Assembly: GCA_048213135.1 (NCBI GenBank)
Contig: PS015179.1
Coordinates: 68,922 to 120,143 of the forward strand
Origin: Reclinomonas americana ATCC 50394
Taxonomy: Eukaryota
DNA: 51,222 bases
Reading direction: 5' to 3'
The notes below the pieces were generated by a model. It saw only the letters and a list, made by a program, of their open reading frames with translations, made no database searches and had not been told where the DNA came from. The position numbers were made by a program, and so were the translations under genes. Below, piece by piece: positions 13,501-42,097 of this stretch (its first letter is position 1; the number at the start of each line of letters is the position of its first letter).

Positions 13501-15582
13501 TCATGCTGAACGAGCCGCGGGTGCGTTTTCTGTGATGGCTGCGATCGAGTGCGCACTGGCATGCAACCACATACTGACGATGCTCCCTTTCTTGCCTCAC
13601 AGATCAAATCGACTCACTTGTCCAGTGAGCTGCGCTTTGATGTGCTTTCACACCTTCTCAACATTACGCACACGCTGGAGGGGCATTCGCGGGCGAGCGA
13701 GCTGCACCGCGTGTGGACCGAACTGACGGAGGTGCTGTCGAGCATCACCGATCTGCGTCGGCGAATCAGCTACTACCGGTCCACCATTGTACATTTCACA
13801 ATGCGCGGCGAGCTGCCGGCTGCCCAGGAGGCGTACACCCAGCTGCAGCGCATTCTGCGCACGGAGATGCCGGCAGTCGAGCGGATACACTTTGACTGCA
13901 CGGTGGGAGTGGACCCAATTCTGCACGCCCACATTGTGATGGCGCGCAATCACGTGCACATGTGCAACGGTGACGCCGCCGTGCAATGTGTGGATCTGGC
14001 GCACGACTACGTGCAACTGCACAAAATCGACGACGAGCAGAACCGATCGCTGGTTCACATTGGTGGCAGCTACGTGTTGGCGAGTCTCCGCCACTGGCAC
14101 AGACTTCGCGAGGTGTGCATCGACGGCTACCTGACGGCGATGAAGCGCGATGAGTCCACACCTCGGCGAGTGTTTCTCTTTTACTTTTATCTCTCCGAGT
14201 TCTACCGCCATGCACACAGTTACGCGCGCAAGCGTNNNNNNNNNNNNNNNNNNNNNNNNNNNNNNNNNNNNNNNNNNNNNNNNNNNNNNNNNNNNNNNNN
14301 NNNNNNNNNNNNNNNNNNNNNNNNNNNNNNNNNNNNNNNNNNNNNNNNNNNNNNNNNNNNNNNNNNNNNNNNNNNNNNNNNNNNNNNNNNNNNNNNNNNN
14401 NNNNNNNNNNNNNNNNNNNNNNNNNNNNNNNNNNNNNNNNNNNNNNNNNNNNNNNNNNNNNNNNNNNNNNNNNNNNNNNNNNNNNNNNNNNNNNNNNNNN
14501 NNNNNNNNNNNNNNNNNNNNNNNNNNNNNNNNNNNNNNNNNNNNNNNNNNNNNNNNNNNNNNNNNNNNNNNNNNNNNNNNNNNNNNNNNNNNNNNNNNNN
14601 NNNNNNNNNNNNNNNNNNNNNNNNNNNNNNNNNNNNNNNNNNNNNNNNNNNNNNNNNNNNNNNNNNNNNNNNNNNNNNNNNNNNNNNNNNNNNNNNNNNN
14701 NNNNNNNNNNNNNNNNNNNNNNNNNNNNNNNCGTCGGTGTCACACGTTCTATCTCGACGCTCATACGCAGCGCCATCTTCACAGACCTGCCGCCCTTCCC
14801 ACAAGTGTGCTCTCAGTTTATTGAGTTGTCGCCCACACACGACGCCAGCTACGCCATTCGACAGTGCCGTGCGATCGCGGGAGCGCTTCACTCGAGCGAT
14901 TTCGCCTCCATGGTGACCATCAACCTGATCGACGCACTGGTGGTGCACGAGTGCCTCGGAGAGTCGGTGGAACGGCTCAGTTCGCTGCTGTCGCACCAGC
15001 AGAGTCGTGGCGATCACCAGTACCCGTGGTCGTCGCTGTACTGTCGCCTCTGTCGCATCATGTGCCGTCGACTGTTGCACTCGATCAACCAGTTCCACAT
15101 TGCCGACGGAGACTGGAACGACGAACGCTTCCGCTTCCAGGTACACATGCATCGCCGCACGACGCGTTTAGTCTGGTTACTCATCACGTTTTGTCTCCGC
15201 CCAACTACAGCAATCGGAATGGGCTCGTGCATACCACACCATCTCCGACGCCACTGTCATGTGCCTCGGCGAGCAAGCGGTGGATGCGGACATGCATCGC
15301 GTCACCCTGTGCTTGGCGTTCTGGTCCGCCTGCAACATGTACCGCGCCGAGAGACAGCAGCGTGGAGCGCTACGGTGGACCGACGACGAGATCGAGGCCC
15401 TGCTGGCCATTATTGATCAGCCAAAGGTGGAGAGTGCGTGGAACCGGTTGCCGGAGGAGTTGCGCGAGGAAGTCAATGCGACGCAGCACATGGACTGGGA
15501 TCCGCGAAGAAAGGTGGAGGATCGCGACGTGCGCTGGTTGGCGGTGCTGCAGGAGATCGAGAAGAGATTAAGTCGGCACTGA
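4513..15582 (+). CDS. ADCY10 / soluble adenylyl cyclase-like protein: long Pro/Ser-rich N-terminus, two degenerate class III cyclase domains, degenerate STAND P-loop domain, helical C-terminus (spliced, two N-gaps)
   Basis: C1-like: LRRLMGEYFGMICTAVRTFRGDVLSLTGSSAVLYF and GVGDGDLILRLFGGVNGKWHYIFGGTAFEAV. C2-like: RYLAMVYITL, ERGLKAMLLFG, AVGVAGGHAYVGAVGGASRRDFAVVGDLARLAVRL. Then VGRQSELEIL, VVAVAGAAGSGTRTLV (P-loop position, 11123-11146) and VLLAIESVHSMDSES. The 2.8 kb ORF 5890-8703 splices in frame (donor 8700 GTGAGT) into the cyclase exon. Stop TGA at 15582. Confidence 0.75.
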
Positions 15583-15712: not shown

Positions 15713-18700
15713 TCACTGCACATACGCACGCGCATCGGAGAGGATCTCTTCCATCGCATCTTGGCTTCCTGTGGTCTGGAAGAGGAAGCGCGCGGCCTTG
15801 TTGGCGACCAAACGCCACTCATTCAAGTCTTCCGCATATCTAGTCTCCAGCACGGCCAGAGCGACAGCCGTGAACCACTGCGTGATACGACTCTCGTACT
15901 TGCGTCCGGCAGCCACGACGCTCGCCACGGGCACGTTGAGAACCGCAGCAATTGCTTCGCAGCGATGCCACACACCACCGGCCTACAACAACAACAACAA
16001 GGCATGGAGTGAGAAGCATGGTTGATGACACAGCGGACGACACCACACGCCGACGCACCGACTGCGAGTACACGAGGCGGTCAAAGAGCACGCGCTGTGG
16101 TGATTGCTGCGGCGCGGCGGCAGCAGACTGCACACACCACAGAAATAAGTCTCTCGTGCTACTGCACAATAGGCTGCCTCGCTCGGCCACAACATACCGA
16201 CTCGCCAGCTGCTGGTGACGGTCCACTGTCGTCGTCGTCGGCGGCTGCGCCGCGCTTCGACGAGGACGCCTGCACACAGAGAGTGAGCCACGATTGTCTC
16301 TGTTTCCAGCTGTGCCCACTCCATTCCATCAGCCAAACCTTGCGACCGCGATGAGGCTTCTTGTTGTACTCGATTGGCGACTTGCGCACGACAGGGTGGG
16401 AGAGAGTGCTGCGTCCGCGGACGGACGGGCGGCGGACTCCGGTCGCACTGTCGGCACGCTCATCCTGAACCACCAGCGACGAATGCTCCGAGGGCAGGTT
16501 GAAGGCCAGCGACCACTGCAGGATCTCCTCCTTGGGACTGCACACAGCACACAAAAGTGTAAGTCTCCACAGGGCACATGCGGTGCGGGGGGAAGAGGCC
16601 ACGCAACGCATTCAGATTCTCGAGTTCACGGATGCGATCGTTCACAGCCAGCGCGTGAATGTCGCGGGATACGAGAGCACTCGAGGGGCTGATTACAGCG
16701 GTCTGCGAAGCCACCAGTCCATCTGCAACAAGAAGAACAAGGAGAAGCAGGTGGAGAAGGAAGAAGAAGCAAAAACACGTCAGACAAATGAAAACAACAC
16801 AAGCCGCGAGGCACGCAAAAAGGCAAGCGCACCGACGGCCGAGTAGTACTCCACGCGGATGCGCACTTCCTCCGGCGGCATCATGGCGTAGAAGTGCAGC
16901 ACACTTCCACCGTACAAACAGGGCAGTTCGTCGAAAAGCGGAGTTACTCGCGGCGACGAGAACGACACCTTGACCGTGGTGAGTGACGACGACAACGCCA
17001 CTACGCAGTTGAGGACACAAACATTCTCCCGTCAGAGGCAGCCGAGAAGGGGACAGACAGACAGCGAGAGAGAGGTGCTGGCACTCAACTGCCAAGCATC
17101 TTGACGACAATGTCGGAGAGACCCTTCTGACCGATTTCGACAAAACTGTGCACACCAGAGCCGATACGAGCCTGCCAACGTGGAGCTGTCAGCGAGGAGT
17201 GCAATCTAACGAAGGAGAACGAGAGAGACGACACCATACCTGTTCCACTACCAAGTGCGGATCGACACCGTCTCCGATACCAATGGTGAACACACGCGTG
17301 TTGGCTGCGGCTCGACGAATGGCCTCGAAGCATGTCTGCTTCTTGTACACACGGCCGTCGGTCAGCAGGAACAATTGGCGCGAGCGGCCGACCTCCACCT
17401 GTCGAGGCGATGTGCCGATTGAGACCAATGTGCAGCAAAAGACAACTGCGACAAATAATGAAAAAAACGCGACGCAACTGGCGTGGAGAGCACACGCTCC
17501 AACACCGGCAGCAGACGGGTGCCAAACATATCGGCTCCCGCCTTGTCAATGTACTCGCGTGCCTCGGCCAGCGTTTCGTCATTGAACGGTCGTGACTCCG
17601 GCCACAACATGTCCAGCCAGTCACCGAACTTGACAATGTTGAAGGGCACGCCGTCCACCAAACTCTGCACAAAGACCTGCATGGCGCGCTTGCTCTCCTC
17701 CATACGCGCACCAGTCATACTGCGCGAGCAATCCAGAATAAAGATGAGCTCCGAATTGTGTGGTCCCAGCAGTTCGCGCGGGGCCACTACAGGAAACAGG
17801 TGACGAAAGAGTGTAAGTGTCGCTGCTTGCTCGAGGTAGCTCGAGAAAAGGGATTAAAAACGCAACACAGAGAAATGCACGCGCAGTACTCCTTGGAGTC
17901 ACCGGCTGCCGCGAGCGGGTCCTTGGCCAGTGTGACGGTGGGGAACGACAGGTGCTCTGGATACACAGCAATGATGGCATAGTCGTGCGCCTCCGGTACC
18001 GCATGGACGACCACGTCGGCAGTGTTGCCGCGGATCTGCGACCGCACATTGTGCGACGGCGACGCCACATCACGCACTGGCGTGCTCAACTGGCAGTGCA
18101 TGGTCATGAGGGCGTGATCGCCACTCCTGGGGAGGGAAAACAACAACACGTTCAGGGAGCGACCTCAGACGAGCAAGCATATTATGGTGTTTCGTTGACA
18201 AGGCACCTGTTTTCTGCCGGAATAAAGTACAGTGGCACAGGGGCCACAATGCTGTTCGACGTCTTGTCGTACGTCGTCTCCGTGGCGTACACCAGTTCGA
18301 CGCCAATCTGAGCGCGGTCATCAGCAAGACAACGAGAAGAAATACAGTGATACTGGTCACCAACACACACACACCTCGTCGCCCGGGTCGACACGGCCAA
18401 TCGACATCAAGTACACCTCCTGATCCAGATCGCGCGTCATGCTGTCGGCATCCTCCGGATTGCCAAAGTCCTCCACTGGCTGCACTTTCGGCTCGCAGGT
18501 GACCTGTGCAACAACGCGATGAGGATACACACGAGGCAGAAAAAAGCCGGCGAGGACGTGCAGAAACGCAACACTCAGTTGACGATTGCCAACGGTGACT
18601 CGCCAGTCGGCCAGTGCGGTCTCGGTGTTCAGTCGCGGGAACACGTACTCGACATCCATCACACTGTTACCCGTGTGCTGGAAGCGCTGCTTGATGCGAA

Positions 18701-21700
18701 TCTCCAGCACAAAGTCTGTAAGGAATGCTGTCNNNNNNNNNNNNNNNNNNNNNNNNNNNNNNNNNNNNNNNNNNNNNNNNNNNNNNNNNNNNNNNNNNNN
18801 NNNNNNNNNNNNNNNNNNNNNNNNNNNNNNNNNNNNNNNNNNNNNNNNNNNNNNNNNNNNNNNNNNNNNNNNNNNNNNNNNNNNNNNNNNNNNNNNNNNN
18901 NNNNNNNNNNNNNNNNNNNNNNNNNNNNNNNNNNNNNNNNNNNNNNNNNNNNNNNNNNNNNNNNNNNNNNNNNNNNNNNNNNNNNNNNNNNNNNNNNNNN
19001 NNNNNNNNNNNNNNNNNNNNNNNNNNNNNNNNNNNNNNNNNNNNNNNNNNNNNNNNNNNNNNNNNNNNNNNNNNNNNNNNNNNNNNNNNNNNNNNNNNNN
19101 NNNNNNNNNNNNNNNNNNNNNNNNNNNNNNNNNNNNNNNNGGATGGCGGGAAGTCCTGGCCACTAACCAATGGCAGCACGGTGCGCGGTCCGGCAATGAA
19201 CTCCTCATCGTCCACGACAAAGTAATCAGTGGTCGATGTGCGTTCCTTCTTGCCCTTCCAGAAGCGGCGTTTCCGTGGAGCATCGGGTGAGGCCTAAAGG
19301 GTGGGTGTTGGTCAGCAACAGGCACAGGAGAGAGGGAGGGAAGGATGGAGCAAGGGAGGGGAGGGAGGGAGGGAGAAATAAGAACGAAAGAAAGAAAGAA
19401 AGAAACAGAGACTAGGAGAGAATGGATGCGCTTGAAATGCATCTCCTCACCTCCGACGACTGGATGGGTGCTGGCATGACATGCACCTCGCTGTGGGATT
19501 GCGGCCAGCTCTGCAGAAACATGTCAGCACACAAACACCACCACATCAGTCGCGCACACAATCTCACGCAGACGGAACGACGTGCACGACGGCTCCGTCC
19601 ACCACGCCAGCTTCCACAAAGGTGAACTCGCTGTTCAGCGGCGCACCACCCGTCGCGTGCAGCGTCACATCCGGCTTCGAGTCGGGCGACACGTCGTCGG
19701 CGCTGCAGACCAGGGCCTTGATTTGCGGCTTCAAGTCGGCAATCGGTTGCACGGCTGGAGACAGAGCGTAAGAAAAACTGACGTGAAGAGTGGAATGTGA
19801 AGTGACGCACGAGAGGCAGTCATCGGAACAGCGTTGCCGCGCGGAGTCTTCAGCGTGAACCGGAGAGGATCCCAGATCTGCCAACAGGAATGGCCTTCAA
19901 CACGAGACAAGAGAATTATTGCAATAAGGGACATTCGATCCGCACCATGTCGACCACAGAGTTCTCCTGAATGCCGAGCTGCAGCAGTGTTGCTTCGTCG
20001 TCCAGCATCGCCTTTCCGTTGTACTGCAGACGAACCTTGCTGGCCGCAGTCGGAGGAGCGCGCTCTGCGTAGCACACTTGCTCCTTCAACTTGAGCACCG
20101 GTGAGGCAGCTGCTCGCAGACAAAAGTTAGATGCACACACAAGCACGTGTGTTTGTGTCACTCTCTCTGACGCAACGGCTCAGCACAATCTCATGACGCG
20201 TGCCCGTGTTGCTCTCCACACGCACAGACACCGGGCGCCAATCCTGCATTCATCGCCAACATGTTGGTGTAAGTGTACAACGAAAAAGATGAATAGTAAC
20301 ATAAAGACAAACGCACCGCTGTCAGGCGTTGGCGCGTGTCGACAACATCGGCGATTCGCGCACTGTCAGTGTCCAGAGGACGGCCGCGGCTGCTGAGCGT
20401 CAGCAGACGAGACTGCTCTACCGGCGCACCCTCGGCGTCGCACACACGTTGCTTGAGGTACAGCACGGTTTCGTTTGCTGTGAAAGGATTAGCGGGTAAC
20501 TCAGAAGAGCAACACGAAAACAGAGAGAGACGCAACGTCGAGCAGGCACGGAGAGCGGCTTGAATGACGGTGTGTCGATCAGCACATCGAGCACAGTAAT
20601 GTCCTGCACCAAAGGGAAAAATGTCAGGTATGCAAAAGGAGACAAACGGAGAAAAATACATCAACGCACTCCAAACACGCTGGAGCTCGGCGCAATGCCG
20701 ATTTCCATCAGCTTCGCCGCGTTGTTGTCCAGCGCGTGGCCGTCGTGTGTCAGAGTGACCAAGTTGGCACGCGACTCGGGAATTCCGTGTGCGCGAGCCA
20801 CATGTGCCTTGGCGTCTCCCACAGTGGTCGCAGCTGTGTCGGCGCCCCACAAATATTGAGAAACACACAGTGGCAGCCGAGATGGGCGTAACAGGGCGTA
20901 CCGAGAAGTGGAACCACCACATGGGTGCCGTCGGGCATGCGCACTGGCACCTGTCCAGGCTCCAGCACCTGACAATGGCACACAAGACGTGAGTTCGTGT
21001 TTACACACTCACCATCGGTCGGCGCGGACTCACCGCTCCCAGCGTGTCACCGTCCTTGATGTCAGTGTCGCCCAACTTGCGAGTGCGATCACCGACCGAC
21101 TGGCCAGCACGATTGATTGTCACCAGCGGGGACGCTGCGATGGGCAAGCCTTCGGCCTCTGCCACCACCTCCTGCACGTCGGAGACCGTGTTCGACGCTG
21201 TTCGCCAACAATTTGAGCGCAAGGACAACGCACGTGCATTTCTGAAAGACGAGGTGAAACGCAACGATCGAGCGTCACATGCACAGTCTTGCCAGTCCAC
21301 GTGCGCACAGCAAATGCCATCGGCAGCCAGTGCTACAGTACGCCGCCGAATCGTGAACACAAATACATAAACAGAGACAAAGCATGAAAAAAGCAATAAA
21401 CTCACCGACGACAGTGGTGTGCCTGACGAAATGCCGACTGCAGCCAGAGACTGGCGATCGGCCTCAGCTGGCAGTGGTTGTCCGTTGCGCGCCAGCGCCA
21501 AGTGATCCGACGCAGCACGCGACACGCCCTCTGCATCGCAAACCTTGTGCTTGACAACCATCACAGGCTCACCAGCTGCGTCGATATACACTCGTTAGCA
21601 CATGCAAGGCAATAAAATGCAACAATCTCCCCACAAAGTGAACCTTGAACAGGCACGGAAATCTGCTTGCCCGACGGCGTCTCGACCGAGAGTGTCAGCG

Positions 21701-24700
21701 CATCGAGCTCCTGTCATCACCAAAATAGTGATGAGAAGCAGAACAGATTGAGGAGCAGCAAGTCACACGCACCGCGTTGATCGTGTCGCCATCCGAGATA
21801 CCACAGTCGACCAGCAGCCGATCATCGCGATCCAGCGACTGGGAGCCGTACAACAGCGTAATCGCTGACGTGTTGGCGGCCGGAATGTCCAGCTTTTCGC
21901 CCACTCGCTTGCGCAACCAGTCAACAGTCGACGTGTCTGCACATTCACGGTAAGCAGTGGACACGCCATAAAAAACACAGCAGAAGCGCAGCATGCGGTA
22001 CGCACAGGAGAGGGGAATAGTTGTGGTACGATCGCCACCCGGCAGCACAACCTTGACGCGCAGCGGACCAAACTCAGCGACCAGTGGCGATCCATTGCGA
22101 ACAGGTGTCGACGCCAGAATGCGTGTGTCTGGTCGCAGAGGCTCGCCAGCATACTTGATGGTCACGTAGCGCACCGCTGACGGCGGCACGTGCTCAAAGT
22201 CGCTGACGGCGCGCTTGATGTCGCCAATTGTGTTTGGCGCTGCTCACAAATATGAGAAGGGCTGCGACACATGCTGCTGCGCAGAAAACACGACACGCAA
22301 CGAATAAGCGACATGGGCACAGTGGAGCCGCTCCATGACTGCACCGTGGGCGCAATAGTCTCCCATTGCTGCGACCAGGATAGTAATGAGGACCAGGATA
22401 GACAAGAGCATGAGGAGAACGTGAGTCTTTGCACTCACCGACGTCAACGCGTCGCCGTCACGCAACCCAGCAGCGGCAATCGACTGCGAATCGTCGCCGA
22501 GAATGACACGATTGTCGGAGGTGAGCAGCGTCAACATGGGCGACGTCTCCGCTGGTACATTCTCTGCCGACAGCACCGACTCCTTGAGCCGAGCAATCGA
22601 ATCCGCGGCTGTACAATAAACATGAGCAACGTGGACAGCAGGCGAACGAGCAAAAACGAAAATGTACACGAAACGCTTCACGTCGGAAACGCGGACACTC
22701 TTGCCCGTGGGTGACACCACCACCAACTGGAATCGTTCCAAGTCCTGCACAAGGACAACGGCATGACAATCAGCCGACGACGACATTCAAGACAACAGAA
22801 GATTGTGACGCACAGCGACAATGGCCTGGTTGCCGAGCAATCCAGCATGCGCCACCGTGGTATCGTCGTCCGAGGGGAGCGTCCGACCTTGATGTTGCAA
22901 GACAATAGAATCGGCGACACGCAGTGGCAGGCCCACTCGCTCGGCGATTCTGTTGCGCACAGATTCGAGCTTCTCCGCAGCTGTGCTCCCCCACACACGA
23001 TTTAGCATGCCGAAGAATACGGTGGCAAAAGGGACGCAAAAACGCACGAGTGACCAGCAGCGGCACGTGCTGATTGTCCCACGTCGTCACGTCGAGCGTA
23101 GACGTTTGCCAGGCCTGCAGCACAGGGGTGGTGAGTGAGTGCAGAATACTTACGCAGATTGTTACTCTGGTCAACGCAACAGAACGCAGTGCTGTTCCGT
23201 CCTGGATGCCGGCACTGCCGAGACGCGACCGGTCGTCGACAGCCACAGGTCGGTTGTCTTCCGTTGTCAGAGTCAACTGCGCAGCGGCAGCGCGTGGCAC
23301 CTTCTCGGCATCACACACCCGCTCCTTGAGCGCACGGATCGTGTCGGACGCTGCATTCGTACAATTAATGAGCAGTGGTTCCACAATGTGAGTGAAGAAA
23401 GGAAGACACACACAACGTTTCAGGTCAGACACTCGCAGATTGGTGCCAGACGGAGCCACCACCAGGATGTTGGCCTCGCCCAATGTCTGCGGCGTGCGCA
23501 CAAAGCGTGGTAAGGAAAAGAGAAGATGACAAGCGGCATGAAAAGTCAAAAACTGTCTACGCAACAGCGTGCACGGTCTCGCCACCGCGGAGTCCCGTGT
23601 CGGCCACTGTGCTGTCCTCCGTGTCGAGCAGCGCACGACCGTGGTCATTCAGCGTAACATACGACGCGGAAGCGGCGGGCAAGCCCTCTGCTTCGGCCAC
23701 TGTCGCCTTGATACTGCGCACCTTGGTGATGGCTGTGCGCGCACGAACAAACAGAAGCAGTGAGCGGCGCAAGAGAGAGGAAAATAGAGGCGGGCGGCAC
23801 GCACCAGACACAGTCATGGGCATGGTGCGACCGCTCCACGTGACCACTTGCAGCGGCATATCCTTCCACAGCTGCAAGGTGGAGCAGTGTTTCAGTAGTT
23901 GTCAGAGAAGCAACTTAAACAATCCCCCAACCCAACTGCAATGATGCGCGAGTTGGCGCCGACGCCACGACTGGCCAGCATGTCGTCGTCCGTGCCCTGC
24001 ACCGGCTGGCCGTTCAACAGCAACAGCAGTTGAGACGCAGCAGTGCCCGGAACGTGTTCAGCCTGGCGATCAATCACACAGCATGCGATTCAGCACACGA
24101 TAAGCCAGAGAAGAACAATGGACTGACAAACCTCGCACACGCGCTCACGGACGCTGCCGACAGTATCCACCGCTGCATTCGCCAACAACGAAAACGCATT
24201 CCGCACGCTTGTGAGATGACAACCGTGCGTACACACATACACACACGGAAGATGAACGCAACGTTTCATGTCGGTGATGTGCAGCACAACAGAGTTCGGT
24301 GTGACGACATCGAACGGTGTCGTGGCGACCTCCTGTGATGCATGTTGAGTAAAATAACAAGCACACTCATCACACTAGCATTAGTGAAAGAGAACAAAAC
24401 TGCAATGAGAAGCTCGCCACCATCCAGCCCGGCTTGCGACACCGTGGTCGCCGCATCAGCAGGCAGTGCACGACCGCGCTCGGTGAATCGGATGCTGCTG
24501 CTGGCAGCGGGCGGCAAGCGCTCCGCCGCCGCCACCGTGTTCTGCAGCTGCGAGAGAGGCGTGACGGCTGTGATGTGTATAGAAATTTGGTGTCAGCACA
24601 TTCGAACACGAGGGTGACGTCTATTGAATAGTAGCGAACGCAACGTTGCACGACCGGCGACAACGACTGGCCCGACCAGGTGACGACGTTGAGAGTGATG

Positions 24701-27700
24701 TCCTTCCAGCGCTGCACACAAGAGTGACCAATTAATAAGCACGCTGACAAGCGAGGAAAAAAAAACACACGCGCAAGCACACAAACCGCTGCCACAGCCG
24801 TGCCACCAACAATGCCGGCCTCGGCCAGGGATCCGCGATCCGGAGTGGTGACCAGGTAGTCACCCTCCTTGATGAGCTGCACCTGAGGCACAGCACTGAC
24901 CGGGGTACCGTCGACTGCTCGCCCCAACCAACAAATGAGTAACACGTGCCCCACAATTACGACAACGACGACGACGACGACGCACTCTGGCAAATGCGCT
25001 CCTTGAAGCGCCCGATGGTCTCGCTCGGCGACACATTCAACGTGCGTCGAGTACCGTTCAAGCTGACCACGGGCACATCAACTGGAATCCAGATGGCGCG
25101 CACAGTGGACCCATCGGCGATACCGGCCGAGCGCAGAGTGGCCTCGTTGGGTACCAGCACGTCGTTGTAGTGAATGGCCAGCGGCTCGGAGGCACGCGGC
25201 GGCAGCCCCTCAATCTCGCACACACGCAGCTTGAGGTCTTGAATCGTATCGGACGCTGGATACAAAACAGAGAAAGTACGTTCAGCCTATGCTGCTTCCA
25301 CGCCTCGGGAAAACACAATGCGTACCGTCGGCGTCGACCTGCACTGGGCGCTCGGGAGGCATAATCACAGTGATTGTGCGAGGTTCCTGCACACGCTTGC
25401 CGTGTCACAGACAATAAGAGAGAAAGACGAGAAAGATGCCAAAACTCACCGGCGCAGATGCAAATGCCGCATACATGTCGTCACCCTGCAGTCAGAAAAG
25501 ATGTCAAAAAAAGAGCCGTACTAAGTACGGGCAAAGGAAAGGGTGGATGACGGTACCTCGAGATCCGCAAACTGTCACGACAGAAGAGCGATAAACATGA
25601 ATTAACAACGAATGTATGAGCGACCGGTGCAACAAGAAAAGAACGCACTCCTCCAAGTGGCGGAATGTAGCTGCACAGGAAACGGAACATGTGAGATGGG
25701 AGCGGCGGTAAAAGACTCAGGGGAGTGCCGGCAACTCACCGGTAGCGATAGTCGGGCTTGACTCCAGTGGTTTGCGGTGACCGTGGCTGCGATGACAGGG
25801 TGAGCACACCATGCACACAACATGAAGAGCAACGGCTACCAACCTCGACGTCCACGATAATGTCGTCGTTCCATGTCTGTTTCATGCAGTTGCGTGTTCA
25901 GGACAACAAACTGATGCTAACACGCAGCACAGCAACACTAACCGCCTCAATCGTGGATCCAGGCTTGACGTTGTACGCTCGGAGCTTTCGCGTCGGATCG
26001 GAGAGCTCGGCGTCGGCAAAGGTGAGCGACAGCGTGTCTGCCGCGGGTCGAGGCAGTGCCTCCGCCTGTTGAACAGCAAGCCAAGTGTCAATCCACAGAG
26101 CGAAAGCACAAGCAACATTATATCTGGACACACGCAACGGTCACGACAGCGTTGCGCAGATCCTGCACGGAGTTGTCGCGAGCTGATGCAGACCTCAATC
26201 TGTCAGTCCCAGCAAAAAAACAGAAAAAGACCACACGGAAAACGCAACGATTCACGGCACACACAATGGGTCGATCGTCAGGCAACACCACCGTCACTTG
26301 CGTCGGGCCAGCACGCTGCAAGTAACGCCATGTGAGCAACACTGGATAAAAAATACAAAACAAATATAGTTATAGACCTGAGGAGCAGTGGCACCGGCCG
26401 GCCAGGTAAGCGTCAGCGGCTCGGCTTGAGTGGCATTGAGCACGGTGACTGGCGTGTCGGCGGCCACGGCGGCATTGCGAACAGTGGCAGCAGGCAGAGG
26501 AGCCTGTGGCACTCCTTCCGCAACACAGGCGCGACGGACGGCATCACTGACCGTGTCGGATGCGGCAACCGGAATCAACTCTGTGCGCTGCGGGTGCACT
26601 CGCACCGGCAGCATGATGAAGGGGCACTCGACGTGGTCCACCGCCGGCATGTGCGCCATGTGAGCCTGCACGAGCAAATTAGAGATGACCTACATTTGTC
26701 GCTCACACGCCCGCACACATATGCTTACGCACCACAGACTGGATGGCAGCAGTTGGTGGCCACGACTGCACGAAAGAGATGTCAGCTACGCGCTGCGCAT
26801 GGCATAATGCAGCAGGCGGTACGCAACTCCCACGAGGCGGTCATTCGGTTCGACGCCAGCAGCGGCCAGCGTGGCAGCGTTGTCCGCCAGCACACGATTG
26901 TCGTGACGCAGGACCAGCGAGCCAGCGGCCTCGGCCGGCAGAACCTCGGCGCCCACCAACATCTCCTTGAGGCGTCGGACAGTTGTTTCACGCACTAACA
27001 CCGTCGATGAGTGAGCGGGAATGACAGCGAGAGAAAACGGAAAAAACAGGGGAATCACTCACCTCGCACAAGGCACGCCAGCGAGCGACCACCAGGCATC
27101 GTGACGTAAACACGCTCCGGAACAGCAGCGCTCTGACATTTTTTGTGCATGAGCACGCGCACCGCAAGAGACACGAGCAATAAAGTAGGAAACGCTCACC
27201 GGTGGTGCCGGAGCATTCGATGGCCACGCCAACACGAGCGGTGTGGCGTCGGTGACTCCCAGCTTGCGTACAGGGGCGTTGCCGGGCATCTTGATGCCAG
27301 CCACCGTGGCAGCCACTGGTTGTGCGCCCTGAGGCGGCACCAGGGACGCTTCACCGAGATTCACTCGGCGCACCACATCGTCGACCAGATCGTCGACGGC
27401 AGCGTCCACTGTCTCTCGTCTGCCCGACGGGAGGACCACCGGAACAGACTGCGTCGGTCGGTACACGTAGCGCACAATCGGCGTAGTGGCGCCGAGGCCA
27501 GTGTCGGGCGACCGAGCAACGGCAATCGGCGGCGACGTGAACTGCGCGACGTCAGAAAGGGTCACAAAGCAAAACACACGCACGCACACAAAGACGCACC
27601 TCTGGGGCCAGCACGGTGGCGTTGGCAGGCCACTCCTGTGTCACGAATCGAGATAAGTAAAGGAGAGAGAGAAATAGTGCGGAGAGGAAGAGAAGAAACA

Positions 27701-30700: not shown

Positions 30701-33700
30701 TGCGGCACATGTCGTTTCACGCAACGGCGAACGGCACACGCGACACGACGGCCATCGGGAAGCTCGACAAATACGCGAGTCGGAGCCGCCAACTGCGCCG
30801 ACGGGTGAGTGAAACAACATGACCTCTCATAAAACCTACAACTTCCCGACTCACCGGCACCGCCACTGTGGAGGGTGGGAACGAGAGAACCAGCGGATCG
30901 CTCTCTGTGGGCGCCGCCTGCACAATGGGAACCTGGCCGGCCACTGTCGTGCCACGAACCACGGCACCAATGGCGTGGGCGGCAGAGGTGGGCGGCGGTA
31001 CGCCTTCAGCAACACAAACGCGACGAATGACATCGTCGACGCTGTCGTCGGTGGTGGCGGGCACCACTTCGCGGCGGCCAGTAGGCAGTTGCACGGGCAC
31101 TTGGTGGGGATGGCGGTGCACGAAGCGAGTGACGGGCACCGTGGACATGGTGGGGGCGGCGGACACGCCGGCCTGTGGGTGGCGAAAGGGGGGAGGTAAG
31201 GGGAAGGTAAGAGGGAAGATAAGGGGGAGGGGGAAGGGGAAAGGAGAAAGGGGACAGGGGGAAGGGGGTAAAAGGGAAGGGCGGTAAAGTAAAGGGGAAG
31301 AGGGAAAGGGGAAGAGGGAAAGGATGGAGGGCGGAAGATGGAAGGGGGAAGACGGAGAGGAGAAGGGGGAAGGGATGGTCAAGGGACGACGACTCACCGG
31401 TACCGGGACAGTTGCGTGCATTGGCCAGGACTGCGATAAGAGGGGATGGAAGTAAGGGGGCAAACGGGGTGAGCTAGGTAAATGGATAACGAGAGAAGCA
31501 AGACAAGACGCAACAGCCTGGAGAGTATCCCCAGCAGCCACATTGACGGCCTCCAGAGTCTTCTTCGAGTCGTCCAGAGGTCGACCACCGGCTGTGCGCA
31601 GTGACATGGTGCTCACGGCGTTGTCGGGCAGGCCTTCACTTGAGACGACGGCACTCTTGATGCCACCGACGGTGGTGGTGCCAGCTGCATTTTGACGGGT
31701 TGTGAGTCGACAGTGCATCGTAAAAGCGTATTCACATAAAAGAGTACGGAACGTCGAATGGCGCAGGCCACACGTCGGGCGCCAGGCAGCTCGACATACA
31801 CACGAGGTGGGGCAGCTTGCTGCTCAGATGGAAAGAAGTTTAGATTGAGCTAAGCTCCAACCTTCGTCTCTCTTTCTCTCACCTGCGTAGCTCCATACGA
31901 GGGCGGCACGGCAAGCACCAGCGGGTACAACGGTGTCGGCCCAACATGCGCCAGCGGCACATCCAATGGCACATCCTCGCCGTCATACGACACCTGGATC
32001 GGCTCGTCGCCAAACTCGGGAGTCTTCAAGCCCTCGGCCACACACACGCGGCGTGCGACATCGCGGATGGTATCGTCCGTCGACGCAGCCACAGCTTCGC
32101 GGCGGCCACTCGGCAACACCACCGGCACCACTTGCGATGGGCGATAGGCGTAGCGGACAACAGGAATCGGTGTTCCGGGGACCGCAGCCACCGGCGGGGC
32201 GGAGCTTTCTGGCACACCCAGCACACCGGGCTGCACGAGAACGAACAGGTTGAGTGATATGCGTGCAATGCACGACAGGCTGTACAACTCACCTTGCTCG
32301 CCAGCATGTTGAGACGCGGCCACGACTGTTTGACACACAGACGTGTAAGGGAGATGCAAACAAACGCAGCGCAATAGAATGGGTACGAAACAGCAGTCAG
32401 CGTGTTTCCAGGCACCACGCCCACGGCGTTCAGTGTCTTGCGCGGATCGTCGAGTGCGCGGTCGCCAGGGGCACGCAGCAGCACCGCTGCGGCTTTTTCG
32501 GCGGGCAGGCCCTCGCTGGAGGCCACGGCACGCTTCACATCGGCGACCGTCGTCTCGCGAGCTGCAACGAGGAGACGCAAGAGTGAGCGACAAGCAGGCG
32601 AGCAGAAGAGTAAGCAGTAGCAGTGGTACTCAACGCTTGACAGCCACGGCAATGCGGCGACGGTTCGGCAACTCGACATTGATGCGCTCCGGTGCGTCGG
32701 TCTGGTGGCGAGCAACGGTCAGTTTTCCCCAGCATATCGTAAAGAGGAATCACTCTGAAGCGCACCGCGAATGATGCAGAGGGATTGTCCCACTGCAGCA
32801 CCAGCGGCGTCTCGGGTGTGATACCGGCATTGCCGACAGTCACATCCGACGGCACCACGACGCCGTCGACAGAGGTCGTCAGCGGCGGTCCATCGACCGA
32901 TGGCAGAGGCACACCCTCGGCCACAAACACACGACGCACAACGTCGTCCACCGTGTCGTCGGCAGCGGCAGGCACCTGATCGCGGCGCCCGTTCGGCAGC
33001 ACCACTGCAGCAGTGGTTGTCGGACGGAATACGTGGCGAATGACAGGCACGCCCGGCTGTCAAACTTCGAGTGAGCACGCGTCACTAGTGAGCAACAGCA
33101 GAGTTCTACGCAACCTGCTCAACCGAGCGGAAACCGCGGCGCGGGTCGCGCAGGTAGCGGTAGCGCATCACCGGTGCCTTGGAGGAAGGGAGAGCAACGA
33201 CTTGAGGGGGGAGGAGATGTGGGAAGGGGGAAATGAGAGGTTTCTAATCACCTTGATGCGATTTCCGCCGAGAGCAGTCACACCAGCCGGCTGCACCAAA
33301 TTGATTAATGTGCGCACGTGAGTTGGTAATCAATCGATGCGTAGAAGACTGGAAACACAAAGCCGCACCGATACACCGACACGGACATCATCGGGCCAGT
33401 GCTGTGTTATGAGAGAAGTAGTAGAGTGAGACAAAGGAACGTGCTGGGTAGTTGACGGAGAGACGCACCGCGTAGAGACGCGAGTCGGGAACCACGCCAA
33501 CGGCAGCGAGCGGGGCGGCATCGTCGTCAAAGACGTGGTCGTCGGAGCCACGCAAGACAACAGTGTCGGCGAGGACGGCGGGAATGCCTTCGGCACGCAC
33601 CAGATCGTCTTTGACGTCACCAATGGTGCTCTCGTCGGCTGCGATCGATTAGGGGAGAGTTGATGACGCGATTGCTCAATGAATAAAGTGGGGGCGCGTA

Positions 33701-36700
33701 CGCAACGCTTGATGGAGGTGACGACGACACGGTCGCCAGGCAGCACAATGTAGACCACGGGAGCCGCCGTGTGCTGCAAGTGAGGCAAAGTGTGAGTGAA
33801 GGGGAAGGGAGGGGCGCTCAATAGGAGAAGTTGAAGTAACGCGGACACACATACACGCACGACGCACGCACCAACAATCACAGGGCGCACATTCAGACAC
33901 ACGAAAGCATACTGATGAAGGACGCACAGACATCAGGACGCACATACAGACAAAGGACGAAGGACGTACACAGACAAAAGAACCCATGAAGACATCAGGA
34001 CGCATACAGACACACGAACCCATGAAGACATCAGGACGAAAACAGACACGTGAGAGCAGAAACAAATGCACGAACGTGAGCGCAGGATCAAACTGCATGC
34101 ACGCAAAAGAATACATCCGTGAACACAGATACTCGGACGCTGGGACACATGCAAGGAAGTACGAAGCAAAACCTCAGAACTGCAAGCACTCGACAGGCAA
34201 ACAACAACACACAGGTGCACGCCCGTGCACAAACAGCACAGATTCGCATACAGATACACGGAAGTACAAGGCAAGTTCACATAAACGCAATCACACGCAC
34301 AAACGCAAGCACCCCAAGAGAACACACACACACACAGTCACGCTTTCGCAGACATCGAACGCACGCGGAAGCAAGGAATGCACGCGCAAATACAAAGAGC
34401 ACGTTCCCAGAACAAAAAGAAAACGCAACCACTGGAACGGACGAGCCACTGGGCCAGGTCAGCACCAGCGGGTTCTCGGGTGTTGCACCAAGAGTGGCGA
34501 CGACAGTAGCAGGCGGCATGACATCCCCACCCACGGAGGCGCGAACGGCAGGTGCGCCGACTGCCGGCAGTGGCAAGCCTTCGGCGACCGACACACGTCG
34601 CACCACATCCACCACACGATCGTCGTGCGCCACCGGAATTTGCTCGACGCGTCCCGACGGCAGACGAACAGGTACGAGCAGAGGCGGGCGGTACAGGTAG
34701 CGTGCCAAGGGCATACGCACGGTGCGTGGGCACTGCAATCCGCGACGGTCAGCATAAAAAGGAAAGAAACAGGCAGCAGGGGAGAGAGAGAGAGAGAGAG
34801 AGAGAGACGGCGACAGAAAGAAAGAGCTACAGAGAGAGAGAGAGACGAGGAGAAGAACATGTACAGCAACAACAGCAAGAAAGAGAGAGACAGTACGAGA
34901 GAGAGACGAGGAGGTGAACAGCAAGAAAAGCAAGAACAGAAAAATGGCAAGAAAGACAAGAGAGAGAGAGAGAGACAAAGAGATAGAGAGAGAAAAGGAG
35001 ATCAAAAGAGAAAGTGAGAGAAAGACAGAATGAGAGAGTCAGAGTGTGATTGTGGAGGAGAGACAGTACGTTTGTGTGAGAGAGACTATGTGAGCGGAAG
35101 AGTGCAACAAACTGCGAGACAATGCGCCCACACATAAAAAGTGTACTCACCAATGGTTGGCCGTCGGGGTTGCTCTGTGCACACAAGCCACAGCACCAGT
35201 GAATACAAGAGTAACAGATGAGAAGCACGAGTGACGAGTGACGGACGCAACCTGTGTCGGCATGACATGGCGATAGCGAACGACTGGCAACTGGCGCAGG
35301 GTCGGGGCGGTGCTCTGCGACGAAAGAAATACGAGTGAGAAAGTCGCGCAGGCAAGACAACGATGATGACGAGACTCACCGGCATGCCAACGGCAGCAGT
35401 GTCGGGCCACGACTGCAAAGAGAAAGGTGAGCAAAGCAATGTTCGTCACGACAACATGAACGACGACACGCACCGCGTCCAGCATATCACGCGAACGGAT
35501 GCCGGCATCTTGGAGACTCTGCGAGTCGTTGTTCAGCTTGCGCCCGTTGTGGGTCAGCGTCAGCAACTCGGTGGCGTCCTGAGGCAGGCCCTCGGAGCTG
35601 CATGTGGCGTTCTTGACGTGCTGAACGGTTGTGGTGTCAGCTGCGTCAGGTGCTCAAGTGAGTTTGAAGCGAGTGACATGGGATCACTCAAGGGGGAAAC
35701 GCACGATCCACGGCCACGGCAATGACGCGCTTGCTCGGGTATGACACGTAGACAAACGACGGCGATTGGCGCTACAGCGAAGAAAATCTACGTCAGCGAC
35801 CGTACATCAAATCAGGGCGACAAAACAACATACCGTGGGCGCCATGCCTCCAGCAGGCCACGCCAGCGTCAGCGGCTGCTGCTGCGTCACACGCAGCTGT
35901 CCCACTGGCGCCACCGGCGACACTTGGTGTCCGCGCACGGTGGCGATGATTTGCGGCTGGCCGGTTGCAGGCACCGGCACGCCCTCGGCAATGCAAGTGC
36001 GCGCCACCACGTCCTGCACAATATCGTCGGCTGTGCATGGTAGCAAAAGTGTCATTCAGTTTCCAACCTGCACGATGATGAAAGAGACGAGCGACGCAAC
36101 AGCTGGCCGGAATGTCAATGACGCGGCCGCCCACCGACACGGGCACAGTGGTGCCGGGGCGATGCACGTAGACGGCGATGGGAACGGCGATTTCTTGCGG
36201 CTGATGTACGGGGTGAGAGACATGAGGAAAAGAAGGAGGAACAGTGAGAAAGCGCAGTGTCNNNNNNNNNNNNNNNNNNNNGAAGGGGGGTGGGGAAGGG
36301 GGGAGGGGAAGGGGGAAGAGGAAGGGGGAGGAGAAGGGGAAGGAAGAATAAAATGAAGAGGATGAGGGGAAGACGAAGGGGAAGACGAAGGGGGAAGAGA
36401 AAGGGGGAAGAGGAAGGGGGAAGGAGAATGGGGAAGGGGAATGGGGAAGGAGAAGGGGGAAGGAGGAAGGCGGATGGAGAAGAAGGAAGAATAAGGGGAA
36501 GAGAAAGGGGGAAGAGGAAGGGGGGAAGAGAAAGGAAGGAAGAGAAAGGAGGGAAGAGGAAGGGGGAAGAGGAAGGGGGAAAGAGGAAGGGGGAAAGAGG
36601 AAGGGGGAAAGAGGAAGGGGGAAAGAGAAAGGGGGAAAGAGAAAGGGGGAAGACAAGAGGAAGAAGAGGAGAGGAGGAGAGAGAGGAGAGAGTTGTGAGC

Positions 36701-39700
36701 ACACCGTCAACTGCGTCGAAATGGTCGTCGGCCAGTCCTGCACAAACAAAGGACTGTTCAGATGCGTGGCGGGCAACGTGGCAGGTCGATCGGCAGCGAC
36801 GCACGACATAGATTTCGTCCTCCTCCAACACGCCGGCCTCCTCCATCGTCTGCTCGTCGTCACACAGAATGGCGTCCTGACTGGTGAGCATAATCAGNNN
36901 NNNNNNNNNNNNNNNNNCGGTGCCTCGGCCTTGATCTGCTTGGTGCGAGACGGGAATGTCTGCGGAAAGGAGGAAAGGTGTGAGGATAAGTGGTCAGAAG
37001 GCAAAAACATAATCAAACTTCTCTGAGTGAGGGCTGTCTCGCACATGCACTGAGCGGCGCACGGCTCACTCTCTTCCTCTCCCTCCATTTTGGATTGCGA
37101 CTCGTTCAAGCGCGCGAATACACACACGCATGCGCTCGTTTCTCACTGATTCTAACTCTCTTTGAGTCATTGTCTCAATCCGGATCTCTCAAATTCTCAA
37201 CCTAACACGCAAACAATTATTCACCCACATTCACAAATACACACAGTCTTCCTCCCTAACTCGCTCCCTCCTACTTTCTTTCACTGAGTCGCCGTTCTGC
37301 TTTCTCTTCCTCCCCTTCCCTCTTTTTCTCCCTCCGTCCCATCTCTCTGTCACTTCACGAACCAGGTAAATGAGCTTGGTGTTGGAGATGGTGGACAGAC
37401 GATCCGAATCCTTCAGCGTCTTGTTGCTCTGCTTGGCCACAATGGTGCCGGAGGGCGGCGGAATGCCCTCCATCAGCAGCGTGCGCCGCTTCAGGTTGCG
37501 GACGTCGTCGGAGGGCGCCACTGGCACCTCGACTTGTCGCTTGTTCGGCAGCACCACGGTGTAGATATCAGCCGTGCCGTGCACCAGAGGGGCAGCGGAC
37601 GGGCTACCGCTGCCGCTGCCGCTGGGAGGAGCAGCAGCAGAGAGCGACCGGGCGACGGTGGGTGAGGCCTGCGCGATGGGGAAGGTAAGGAGGGCGCAAA
37701 GAGGGGCGAAGGGTGGCAGGCTGTCGAATCACGCACCGCACGACCGCGACGTCGGGGGACACCGGCGACGTTTGCAGGCCATAACTGTGGGCAGGGAGAA
37801 GGGGGAGAAGGGGGAGAACAAAGAGAAGAGATGGAGGGAGGGTCGAGAGTTAAGCTTAGTAATGCGGTTGAATGAAAGTGTGACACGGAGGGCAAGAGCG
37901 AAAAAGGTTATTGACTAGGAACGCCAAGGCGAGGGAGAGACAGAGGGGGAAACAGAGAGAGAAACAGAGGGAGAGACAGAGGGAGAGACAGAGGGGGAGA
38001 CAGAGGGGGAGACAGAGGGAGAGAGAGAAATAGAGAGAAACAGAGGTGAGAGACAGACGAGGGAGAGAGAGATAGAGGTAGAAAGACAGACGAGAGACAC
38101 AAAGAAAGGAGAGAACGCGCGTGCGTGAGAATGAAAGAGTGAGAGAGATGGGGAGAGACAAGAGAAACGAGGGAAAGGAAAATTTACCAGAAAGTGGCAG
38201 GGCGACACGGAGAGAGGGACAGGCGACGGAGAACTGAGAAGCACAAGCTCCAAGACGACGAGCAACGCAACGGCAGTCAAAATGTCCTGATCTTGCACGC
38301 CCGCATCACGCAGTTTGACATCGTCGGCGGGCGCCAACGCGCCGTTCGGCAATCTCAGCACTTGCGACTTGAGGGTGGCTGGCGGCAAGTTTTCGGCGCG
38401 AACCACTCCGCGCTTGATGGTGGCCACTGTGTCCTTGTCCACTGATTGACGGCGAGTGGTTAGAAGAGGGAAGGCTTGAAGGGAGAAAACATCCACACGC
38501 AACAGTCGACTCCGATAGGGACGATGCGCAGGCCGGCCACATCCACGTTCACCGTGTGCGGAGCGCCCGGTGGCGGAGTGCCGCGGGTGGTGGGTGGGAA
38601 GGACTGTGTTGAGGAGAAAGGAGAGGAAAAGGAGGAAGCACGACGATGAGCGAAGCTTGAAACATACGCGAAAAGGAAGATGTCACGGATGCGTGTGAGA
38701 GAATGGACATCAGGCAAAGGGAGCTAAATTAGGAAGGGGCAGACAGTGCACGGAGAGTGCGCAACGAGAGAGCATACTGATCGACTCATCGGTGATGGGC
38801 TCGAAGAAGAACCACGCCACCTTCTGAGAAACACATGGAGAGAGGATAACGACGAGGGAACCGTTGGGAGACGAAACGGCGAAATCGAGACGGTGATGAG
38901 AAGCTACGGGAAAGGGATGGGAGGAGAGATGGGGGTAACACCGCAGGAGAAGTGCACGACTGGGAGCGACAGGAAAAATAGGGAGAGACAGACAGACAGA
39001 CAGACAAACAGAGAGGGAGAGAGAGAGAAAGGCGAGAATTATTCGAAGGAAGGTGCAGAGCAGATAAAGCCAACGAGAGAGACAGAAGCCAGTGCACAGA
39101 AAGTGCGAAACGGGAGAACCAGCACGAAGGGAAGAGGAAAGGAAAATAGAGATGCGGAGATCGTATTGAGCCGTGTCGAGCACAGGTGACAGAACGGAGA
39201 CGGGAGGACAGACAGGAACCAGAGGCAGTGTGAGGAGATAGGGTGAAGGAGAATGCTGAGTGAACGAGGGGGGAGGCGAGGATCTCCAGAATCACTTGAC
39301 GACCACGCACCCCAGCCACTTGATCGCCGGCGGGAATGCCAGCGTCGACGACCATCATCTCGTTCGGCAGCGTGCGACCACCGTGTGAGAGCGACATGTT
39401 GGGCGCCGAGTCCGCCGGCAGTCCCTCTGCCACGCACACGCGACGCTTCACATCCGCAAAGTTTTCGGTGGCTGGAGACGAGAGCGTGAGCACACACAAA
39501 ACAAGAACAAGAAAAGAGGAGCGCCACGAAACGCTTGACGTTGAGTCGCACAGGCGCACGACCAGGAAGCACCACGATGAGCGACCGAGAGTCCATCGGC
39601 TGTGCTCGTCACCGCAGTGAGTGAGTGAGAGGGATGGCAAAGAGGAGTGCNNNNNNNNNNNNNNNNNNNNNNNNNNNNNNNNNNNNNNNNNNNNNNNNNN

Positions 39701-40144
39701 NNNNNNNNNNNNNNNNNNNNNNNNNNNNNNNNNNNNNNNNNNNNNNNNNNNNNNNNNNNNNNNNNNNNNNNNNNNNNNNNNNNNNNNNNNNNNNNNNNNN
39801 NNNNNNNNNNNNNNNNNNNNNNNNNNNNNNNNNNNNNNNNNNNNNNNNNNNNNNNNNNNNNNNNNNNNNNNNNNNNNNNNNNNNNNNNNNNNNNNNNNNN
39901 NNNNNNNNNNNNNNNNNNNNNNNNNNNNNNNNNNNNNNNNNNNNNNNNNNNNNNNNNNAAAGAGAGAGAGAGAGAGAGAGAGAGGTGGATGCAATGTCCG
40001 ATCTCATGTGCCAAAAAGGGAAAGGGCAGAGCAAAGACAACTCCAACGACTCTCGAAAACTAGAGTCGGCAGAGCAATGGGTGCTGTGAAGAGTGCAAAC
40101 GCAACAGGAAGCCGTGCCCGCGACTGCTGATTCATTGGAGGCAT
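15713..40144 (-). CDS. Giant poly-ubiquitin-like (~40 UBL domains) VIT-vWA protein with VWA5A-like C-terminus (highly spliced; 5' end uncertain)
   Basis: Repeated ~75-90 aa units with a beta-grasp pattern (VxVxLPxGR...TVxxVKxxVxxxEGLP...LxLxxxGRxLxDxxTLxxxGVxxGDxLxA) from ~39600 to 19579. Phase-0 splices (19578, 19450) lead into ASPDAPRKRRF..., then VIT (IKQRFQHTGNSVMDVEYVFP), vWA (ELIFILDCSRSM...FNIVKFG...GTRLLPVL...LFLLTDG...RVFTIGIG) and a VWA5A-like tail (WFTAVALAVL...EWRLVANKAARFL), stop at 15713. Start at ATG 40144 (MPPMNQQSRARLP|GTTGCGT) is tentative. Confidence 0.75.
17090..17760 (-). other. vWA domain with intact MIDAS motif (part of the giant gene)
   Basis: DCSRS (DxSxS) at 17719-17733, with the downstream GT and LLTDG residues present. 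Confidence 0.9.
28541..28732. repeat. Intronic polypurine (GAGAGG)n/(GA)n microsatellite
   Basis: Hexamer array directly visible, inside an intron of the giant gene (pyrimidine-rich on the sense strand). Confidence 0.9.
33913..34050. repeat. Degenerate intronic minisatellite, ~36-bp unit containing GAACCCATGAAGACATCAGGACG
   Basis: Core occurs at ~33980 and ~34015, with partial GACATCAGGACG/GGACG copies upstream. Confidence 0.6.
36282..36691. repeat. Intronic G/A-rich low-complexity tract (GAGGAAGGGGGAAA-like units)
   Basis: About 400 bp almost entirely purine on the + strand; similar tracts at ~31190-31375 and ~37930-38180. Confidence 0.85.
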
Positions 40145-40459: not shown

Positions 40460-40566
40460 AGCGTAAAATCGACAGTTTTCAAACAAGAACAAACAGACAC
40501 AACAACTCAGACCTCTCTCGAAAAGAAAGTGTGAAATGTTAAGCAGCAGAAGACCAAGGATTGGTC

Positions 40567-42097
<1,531 letters not shown>

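Follow-up and report, generated by a model that had tools for sequence, protein, structure and literature searches.

Does the minus strand of a 51,222-nucleotide stretch of the Reclinomonas americana ATCC 50394 genome (assembly GCA_048213135.1, contig PS015179.1, positions 68,922 to 120,143; hereafter the window) encode one giant protein in which some forty divergent ubiquitin-like (UBL) domains are fused to a VIT-vWA module, or do these two parts belong to separate genes? An earlier reading of the letters alone (the sequence-only reading) had proposed the former. Our analysis points to a minus-strand nuclear gene that probably runs from about 39596 to 15713 and specifies a product of about 4,500 amino acids. 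Its exon count of roughly 110 is only approximate, because the program that chained the exons made local errors. The window, which is eukaryotic DNA, has a G+C content of about 58% and contains nine runs of N. All positions given below are those of the window, and all features of the gene lie on the minus strand.

The repeat units were collected with hidden Markov models (HMMs) that started from two seeds, one of A type and one of B type, and were iterated over all 590 minus-strand stop-to-stop open reading frames (ORFs) of at least 20 amino acids. At an independent E value of 0.01 or better, the A model gave 36 matches and the B model 35, which were merged by eye into 40 distinct positions. 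The tops of the main exons lie at 39457, 38433, 37584 and 36897 for the first four units, from 36043 to 26077 for ten B-A pairs, and from 25250 to 19725 for the last 16, which bears out the arrangement of four units, ten pairs and 16 more that had previously been spliced by hand. As a control, the same models were run against 637 plus-strand ORFs and gave no matches; on the minus strand there were none outside 19576-39484. The A and B types are homologous, since the HMM of each type recovers the units of the other.

The four N-terminal units (36799-39596), defined by unit HMM matches and the exon model, have their main exons at 39484-39305, 38439-38266, 37584-37369 (B-like) and 36897-36799 (truncated by the gap at 36898-36917), with long, CT-rich introns among them. 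The ten B-A pairs (units 5-24; 25937-36200) rest on the unit HMMs and the exon model, and on a predicted structure for the B type. The B units, of about 95-100 amino acids, are mostly single-exon, with unit 5 split, and the A units consist of a 67- or 70-nt exon for strands β1 and β2, a main exon of 167-170 nt and then a mini-exon beginning xWP. In the final stretch (units 25-40; 19579-25389), assigned by unit HMMs, exon model and Pfam ubiquitin matches, each unit has 76-88 amino acids except unit 25 (a 129-residue slice); linkers are only a few residues long, and two sub-types alternate in part. A separate HMM of the 67/70-nt exon peptides placed a β1-β2 mini-exon upstream of 23 of the 29 A/C-type units, in 21 cases 69-100 nt above the main exon. 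As for the six units in which none was detected, units 1 and 2 have first exons of their own, unit 4 is interrupted by a gap, the intron in question is missing from units 26 and 34, and unit 39 has a longer exon.

Both sequence profiles and structure prediction relate these units to ubiquitin. Pfam ubiquitin (PF00240) matches exon pieces at 8.4e-10, 4.4e-8 and 4.7e-5. A profile of the 40 main-exon pieces retrieved 339 PDB sequences with E ≤ 0.01, the top of the list being all ubiquitin, where single chains score between 1e-9 and 5e-8 and a 9x ubiquitin chain 5e-85. The profile of the B units matched ubiquitin weakly (best E 0.0069). Per-unit structure prediction with Foldseek, as the sequence-only reading had proposed, was run on the B type. 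An AlphaFold model of a B unit, with the ten B units as alignment, has a pLDDT of 85.5 and a pTM of 0.72 and shows the order β-β-α-β-β-β (strands 25-30, 36-41, 71-74, 77-79 and 96-99; helix 47-58). Its best Foldseek matches in the PDB are ubiquitin, ubiquitin variants and ISG15, at target-normalised TM scores of 0.65-0.77 and a probability of 1.00, so that the predicted fold of the B type is the ubiquitin grasp. A search of the ESM Atlas with a B unit returned leads from the ubiquitin family only (0.87-0.90).

The 3′ part of the gene is a complete VIT-Hyb-vWA-CTD module (CTD, C-terminal domain) of the intracellular VWA5A/Vwa1 kind. A profile built from the first 40 fetched homologues of 700-1000 amino acids matched the spliced 3′ model in one stretch, over positions 28-769 of 788 (E 1.3e-114, 370 bits), and gave no match to the reversed 3′ sequence. 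The VIT domain, recognised by this profile, by alignment and by Pfam, is spread over three exons (18207-18732) and starts from TAFLTDF... at a gap edge; the Pfam VIT match on this gap-cut piece, at 1.5e-3 and 19.1 bits, is below the cut-off of 26.5. The vWA domain (17090-17786) is supported by Pfam VWA_3 at 2.2e-14 and by homologue alignment and profile. Its MIDAS (the adhesion site dependent on a metal ion) retains all five residues, aligned with those of the homologues, in DCSRS (17733-17719), GT (...MFGTRLL..., 17529-17509) and TDG (...LLTDG..., 17368-17354). A CTD of VWA5A/Vwa1 type (…EWRLVANKAARF…) closes the frame at 15713-15982, of which 15713-15715 is the stop codon; this domain is not modelled in Pfam, and the Pfam scan gave no match to it. 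The last 90 or so residues align with the C-termini of homologues P0004, P0007, P0008, P0023 and P0135, including the pattern ...EW.L...KA....., and the stop at 15713 coincides with the homologues' end. The VIT domain, the intact MIDAS and the VWA5A-type tail had all been anticipated by the sequence-only reading.

The gene model was obtained by chaining GT-AG exons with codon log-odds and splice-site matrices, self-trained on their own output, in a separate run for each stretch between N gaps. The modelled segments comprise 356 amino acids at the 5′ end (from ATG 39596), 33 between two 20-N gaps, 3406, and 688 from 18732 to the stop; addition of a 42-residue pre-VIT exon brings the total to about 4,500, the size that had been roughly estimated before. 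The 3406-residue segment is an open chain of 85 modelled exons from 36261 to 19141. Across the model, the median length of the 108 introns is 68 nt (interquartile range 62-75 nt; 82 within 55-85 nt), and G+C is 63% in exons and 51% in introns, where T makes up 36%. The program is blind to repeats, and its exons recur in the same sizes (67 nt 14 times, 170 nt eight times, 167 nt and 70 nt six times each). The branch-site motif CTRAY occurs in 25 of the 108 introns against about 10 in shuffles, which is weak support. Donor sites are unusual, with GTTGCG in 24 and GTGCGT in 22 of the modelled introns, and A hardly ever occupies the third position, which is T or G. The intron that follows strand 2 often begins with one or other of these hexamers; its phase is 1 without exception, and most units have kept it. 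The introns of the array have evidently been duplicated along with the units.

Coding most likely begins at ATG 39596, the start chosen by the exon model, where the first strand of unit 1 probably follows (MDSRSLIVV..., 39570-39596); an in-frame stop lies four codons upstream. This ATG is just below the N gap at 39651-39958, because of which an earlier exon is possible. The coding region had been drawn as far as 40144, an extension that we do not retain, as nothing coding-like was found from 39959 to 40144. Judged by eye, the N-terminus MDSRSLIVVLPGRAPV... has no hydrophobic stretch, the true 5′ end adjoining the gap, and the product, whose N-terminus does not resemble a signal peptide, would be cytosolic. 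After unit 3, at 37245-37340, the modelled sequence becomes purine-rich and very basic (…GRKRGKGRKRKQ…), unlike the CT-rich introns of this gene; it could be a linker resembling a nuclear-localisation signal or a mis-modelled intron.

Whether the array and the VIT-vWA module form one protein turns on the sequence between them. Unit 40 ends in ...GAVVHV, from which GT-AG borders in phase 0 lead to SWPQSHSEVHVMPAPIQSSE and on to ASPDAPRK..., so that the phase compatibility claimed earlier for these peptides is upheld. The intron after unit 40 (19511-19578; GTTCCG...TGCAG) is 68 nt long, carries stops in two frames and scores −0.384 in the open one; its donor and acceptor score 3.56 and 5.11 against medians of 4.33 and 5.18. 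The tail or linker exon behind it (19451-19510) has a coding score of 0.322 per codon and opens with SWP, an instance of the xWP tail motif that is seen after other A units and that also closes B units (...LVLAWPAG...). A CT-rich intron of 157 nt (19294-19450; GTGAGG...TTTAG; donor 5.69, open frame −0.712) then separates it from the pre-VIT exon (19168-19293; ASPDAPRK...RTVLPL; coding score 0.559). This exon comes directly after an in-frame TAG, has no ATG, and its GTTAGT donor leads into a gap of 408 N; it had been taken to reach the gap edge but probably ends with ...RTVLPL at 19168, before that donor. Against values computed with the junction left out of training (exon median 0.515, 5th percentile 0.218; intron best open frame, median −0.424, 95th percentile −0.094), both junction exons score as coding and both junction introns as non-coding. 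Aligned with six homologues by MAFFT, the pre-VIT exon has its LPL at the vPL that opens VIT, with about five residues missing, and the consensus of the 40-homologue profile has the same LPL-to-VIT spacing. The pre-VIT exon by itself matched neither Pfam nor that profile, and its putative link to VIT rests on the three-residue motif, the spacing and the coding statistics. The fusion of the array to VIT-vWA is made probable by three things together: the phases of the exons, their coding statistics and the missing start codon.

A number of observations weigh against this one-gene reading. The exon-chaining program is limited to one gene per segment, and with such modelling an unbroken chain is by itself no proof of a single gene. 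Its errors include a 1-nt exon (32754), a 3-nt exon, a wrong exon (29031-28995) and two extra 3′ exons. For the 1-nt exon and the wrong exon, clean GT-AG alternatives in the right phase are present; the extra 3′ exons, 15683-15676 and 15603-15586, were judged spurious. Runs of N interrupt the model at 18733-19140 (408 N, inside the junction), 36262-36281 (20 N), 36898-36917 (20 N) and 39651-39958 (308 N), and continuity across the two 20-N gaps is assumed. All splice junctions are predictions from sequence. Splice scores at the array-VIT junction are ordinary apart from the pre-VIT acceptor at 19294, which is weak (−0.15 against a 10th percentile of 2.36), with three in-frame AAG acceptors a few codons downstream as alternatives. 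The tail exon contains an in-frame ATG (…VHVMPAPIQSSE), at which an internal promoter could yield a stand-alone VIT-vWA protein. Only eight of the 40 exon pieces, which lack β1-β2, match Pfam ubiquitin individually (E ≤ 0.01), and the searches described below found no orthologue that would confirm the architecture.

Several of these points would suit two adjacent genes, an array gene that ends either with the read-through stop at 19564 or, beyond the SWP exon, at 19412, and a separate VWA5A-like gene starting at the SWP-exon ATG (MPAPIQSSE...) or within the N gap. An in-frame ATG is indeed present in that 60-nt exon, the pre-VIT acceptor is weak and the gap hides part of the junction. In addition, stand-alone VIT-vWA proteins are the norm (81-1460 amino acids among the 150 best vWA relatives), and the genome is compact, with a convergent neighbour 130 nt from the stop, so that short intergenic spacers are possible, which also tells against a single gene. 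However, the SWP exon carries the xWP tail found after other A units and stands behind an intron of typical size, 68 nt, and on both counts it is part of the array transcript; a VIT gene starting at its ATG would overlap a coding exon of the array. By our reading by eye there is no ATG in the 118 nt from 19411 to 19294, the pre-VIT exon has none in frame, and all phases are compatible. We therefore consider two genes unlikely. A non-working gene, either a decaying repeat array or an assembly artefact, strikes us as very improbable. This is a draft assembly with nine N runs in the window, and no homologues of the B units were found among proteins of 217-2000 amino acids; but the 3406-residue chain stays open over its 85 modelled exons, whose sizes and phases are conserved, the copies differ too much for mis-assembled identical repeats, and their core residues are conserved.

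Relatives of the predicted protein were sought from both of its parts. HMMER with the vWA exon against 1.84 billion representatives gave 2834 matches with E ≤ 0.001. Short fragments from environmental contigs, with 79%, 55% and 50% identity, take the first three places, and the others among the 150 best are mostly ordinary VIT-vWA proteins, along with some shorter fragments. None of these 150 best of the 2834 relatives is giant, their lengths being 81-1460 amino acids, and the vWA domain mostly lies near residue 270. A Pfam scan of 20 homologues found VIT and vWA in 19, a UBA-like domain at the N-terminus of four (P0023, P0088, P0135 and P0138), a ZZ finger in two (P0006, labelled 'uncultured virus', and P0149), MshEN in one and the ubiquitin domain in none. 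The unit HMMs gave no matches among 151 fetched proteins. Word-index searches found nothing with the B-unit alignment among proteins of 217-2000 amino acids (a giant orthologue with a diverged vWA could escape this search), nothing among those of 645-2000 with a 368-residue frame holding an A and a B unit (a poor query, given its low-complexity retained intron), and no match to the vWA exon among longer proteins of 287-2000. No relative was confirmed when metagenomes were scanned with the vWA exon and, separately, a single B unit. A literature search found no protein with many UBL domains and VIT-vWA, and the earlier statement that no described protein has this architecture agrees with this result and with those for the 150 best vWA relatives, the 20 scanned homologues and the 151 fetched proteins. 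From sequence, the architecture appears to be a new combination of known domains.

The module at the C-terminal end has described counterparts. Human VWA5A/BCSC-1 and Dictyostelium Vwa1 share the order VIT, hybrid, vWA with MIDAS, helical region and CTD, without a signal peptide (PMC10539598). These proteins have about 800-1100 amino acids and begin shortly before VIT, whereas here about 3,800 residues of ubiquitin-fold units precede it. The relatives with a UBA-like domain or a ZZ finger resemble the giant protein in placing an accessory of the ubiquitin system N-terminal to the VIT-vWA core, but they have one small ubiquitin-binding or zinc-finger domain, never an array and no ubiquitin folds. 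N-terminal accessory modules of this sort thus recur in the VIT-vWA family, a link for which a term search of the available part of PMC10539598 found no mention. PMC10539598 reports that Vwa1 co-precipitates with the SCF F-box protein FbxwD, and because of this interaction and the UBA- and ZZ-bearing relatives a link to ubiquitin-ligase biology is suggested. PARP4 and the inter-alpha-trypsin inhibitor heavy chains (ITIH) also contain the VIT-vWA pair (PMC10539598) but belong to other clades without ubiquitin folds, PARP4 having BRCT-PARP partners and the ITIH proteins being secreted with a signal peptide. ITIH1 is described there as having no C-terminal domain of the VWA5A type.

On the side of the array, polyubiquitin (UBB/UBC) is likewise made of head-to-tail units of the ubiquitin family, and the unit profile matches ubiquitin at 1e-9. 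In polyubiquitin, near-identical units with a terminal Gly-Gly are separated by cleavage; the units here share about 25% identity, 39 of the 40 lack Gly-Gly and a large C-terminal module follows. USP7 contains five integral tandem UBLs. Together with ISG15, FAT10 and OASL (two UBLs), it provides examples of non-cleaved ubiquitin folds in series with divergent surfaces, as in the present array. Such tandem-UBL proteins, including the bacterial 'polyUbl' proteins with two to three repeats (PMC1779556), are the closest cases that the literature search gave; they comprise two to five units in contrast to 40 here, and none is known to carry VIT-vWA.

How the units have diverged bears on what the array may do. 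Compared in pairs, the last 16 units have a median identity of 24.8% (range 13-46), mean column identity over the 40 pieces is 28%, and the B units are 25-47% identical to the first of them; units 30/32 and 27/29 show signs of two-unit duplication. In ubiquitin numbering, taken from the alignment of the profile with PDB ubiquitin, the EG-x-P turn and the core leucines are kept, with Glu34 in 33 and Pro37 in 32 of the 40 units and conservation also in the Leu43, Leu56 and Leu67 columns. Core residues are conserved, and the array has therefore been under purifying selection. The Ile44 column is hydrophobic in only eight units and T, S, R, H, K, N or Q in the other 32; the Lys48 column holds lysine in two of the 40 and the Lys63 column in none. 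Across units, conservation is confined to core and turn, with no surface position conserved, a pattern that appears to be that of a structural repeat in which selection acts on the fold and not on a common ligand. Where the sequence-only reading saw no unit ending in Gly-Gly, we agree for 39 of the 40; the B-type unit 5 has the tail ...LTLAWPAGG..., in which further sequence follows GG in the same exon. The copies are old and divergent, at a median identity of about 25%; they are not near-identical repeats, and 39 of the 40 have no Gly-Gly tail for modifier processing and conjugation. Without such tails, and without the Ile44 patch or the acceptor lysines, they are best taken as permanent domains and not as a modifier precursor, in agreement with the uncleaved, integral units postulated before.

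A polyubiquitin-like precursor cleaved into free UBL modifiers would also have its units head to tail, and one tail does read ...AGG...; but with Gly-Gly absent from the other 39, about 25% identity, unconserved acceptor-lysine columns and tails that pass directly into the next strand, such a precursor is hardly credible. A different one-gene account makes the array a multivalent platform or decoy for UBA domains, UIMs, proteasome subunits or many partners, anchored by the vWA head. The units are true homologues of the ubiquitin family, and proteasome receptors are common binding partners of UBL domains elsewhere. The UBA-like domains of some VIT-vWA relatives suggest cross-talk with ubiquitin folds, and divergent surfaces could give each unit a partner of its own. 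On the other hand, the residue equivalent to Ile44 is polar or charged in 32 of the 40 units and no surface position is conserved across them, as is typical of structural repeats, and we regard a platform as rather unlikely. Between the two functions first put forward, the elastic tether fits better, and the decoy or platform is weakened by the state of the Ile44 (8/40), Lys48 (2/40) and Lys63 (0/40) columns.

Given the one-gene architecture, a tether or spacer has, in our estimate, close to an even chance of being right, if a little under it. Forty ubiquitin-fold domains joined head to tail would form a long, mechanically robust spacer. Ubiquitin measures about 3.5-4 nm per domain and resists pulling from its ends in single-molecule work; from this domain size, the extended array would be on the order of 150 nm long. 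It would present the vWA head, which might bind an acidic residue of a protein partner via its metal site, MIDAS domains generally binding an acidic ligand residue through the metal. A more specific version, in which the 40 ubiquitin folds act as a titin-like spring or ruler that holds the vWA 'hook' an estimated 150 nm or so from an N-terminal partner, seems doubtful. In a related version, the array might be a poly-UBL chain that is encoded in the gene, resists hydrolysis and is recognised by dedicated receptors. The anatomy of the gene suggests that exon-intron modules, some of them spanning two units, were duplicated in tandem in the genome and that the array grew in this way.

Ubiquitin folds are familiar as modifiers, or as adaptor domains that occur singly or in small numbers. 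If the spring or ruler version is true, a giant tether in the cytoplasm would be built from this fold, a use previously unrecognised. A single protein with 40 permanent, divergent copies would have, to our knowledge, by far the longest such array. The protein would offer a test case for the ubiquitin fold as a structural repeat, in its mechanics, its inter-domain packing and its escape from the conjugation and deubiquitinase machinery. It would also be a test case for the role of the poorly understood cytosolic VWA5A/Vwa1 module, tied to ubiquitin here as in the UBA-bearing relatives, and the gene illustrates how an array can grow via duplicated exon-intron modules.

The rest of the window contains other genes. 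Upstream of the giant gene on the same strand, 42477-47379 encodes a STAND-type P-loop NTPase (AAA_16 at 1e-6; NACHT and NB-ARC weak), after which an uninterrupted frame of 1329 amino acids holds about 20 near-identical 42-residue TPR_12/TPR_10 repeats (TPR_12 at 5e-261). It appears to be an NLR-like gene whose repeat part is intronless, in contrast to the roughly 110 tiny exons of the giant gene. Long (TC)n/(GA)n and (AC)n microsatellites lie beside several N gaps (40540-41230 and other gap edges) and are probably the reason for the breaks in the assembly. An Rfam search of the window gave no match. The convergent neighbour on the plus strand (15172-15582), whose frame ends 130 nt from the stop of the giant gene in this compact locus, has a weak match to the ubiquitin-binding UBM motif (E 0.012, below the cut-off). 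Also on the plus strand, long frames of 381, 372, 730 and 468 amino acids at 8753-14916, with at most a weak AAA_16 match (E 0.077), may be another large multi-exon gene. At the left end of the window, 349-1194 on the plus strand holds exons of a tRNA pseudouridine synthase (PseudoU_synth_1 at 2.8e-8; same family in the ESM Atlas at 0.94).

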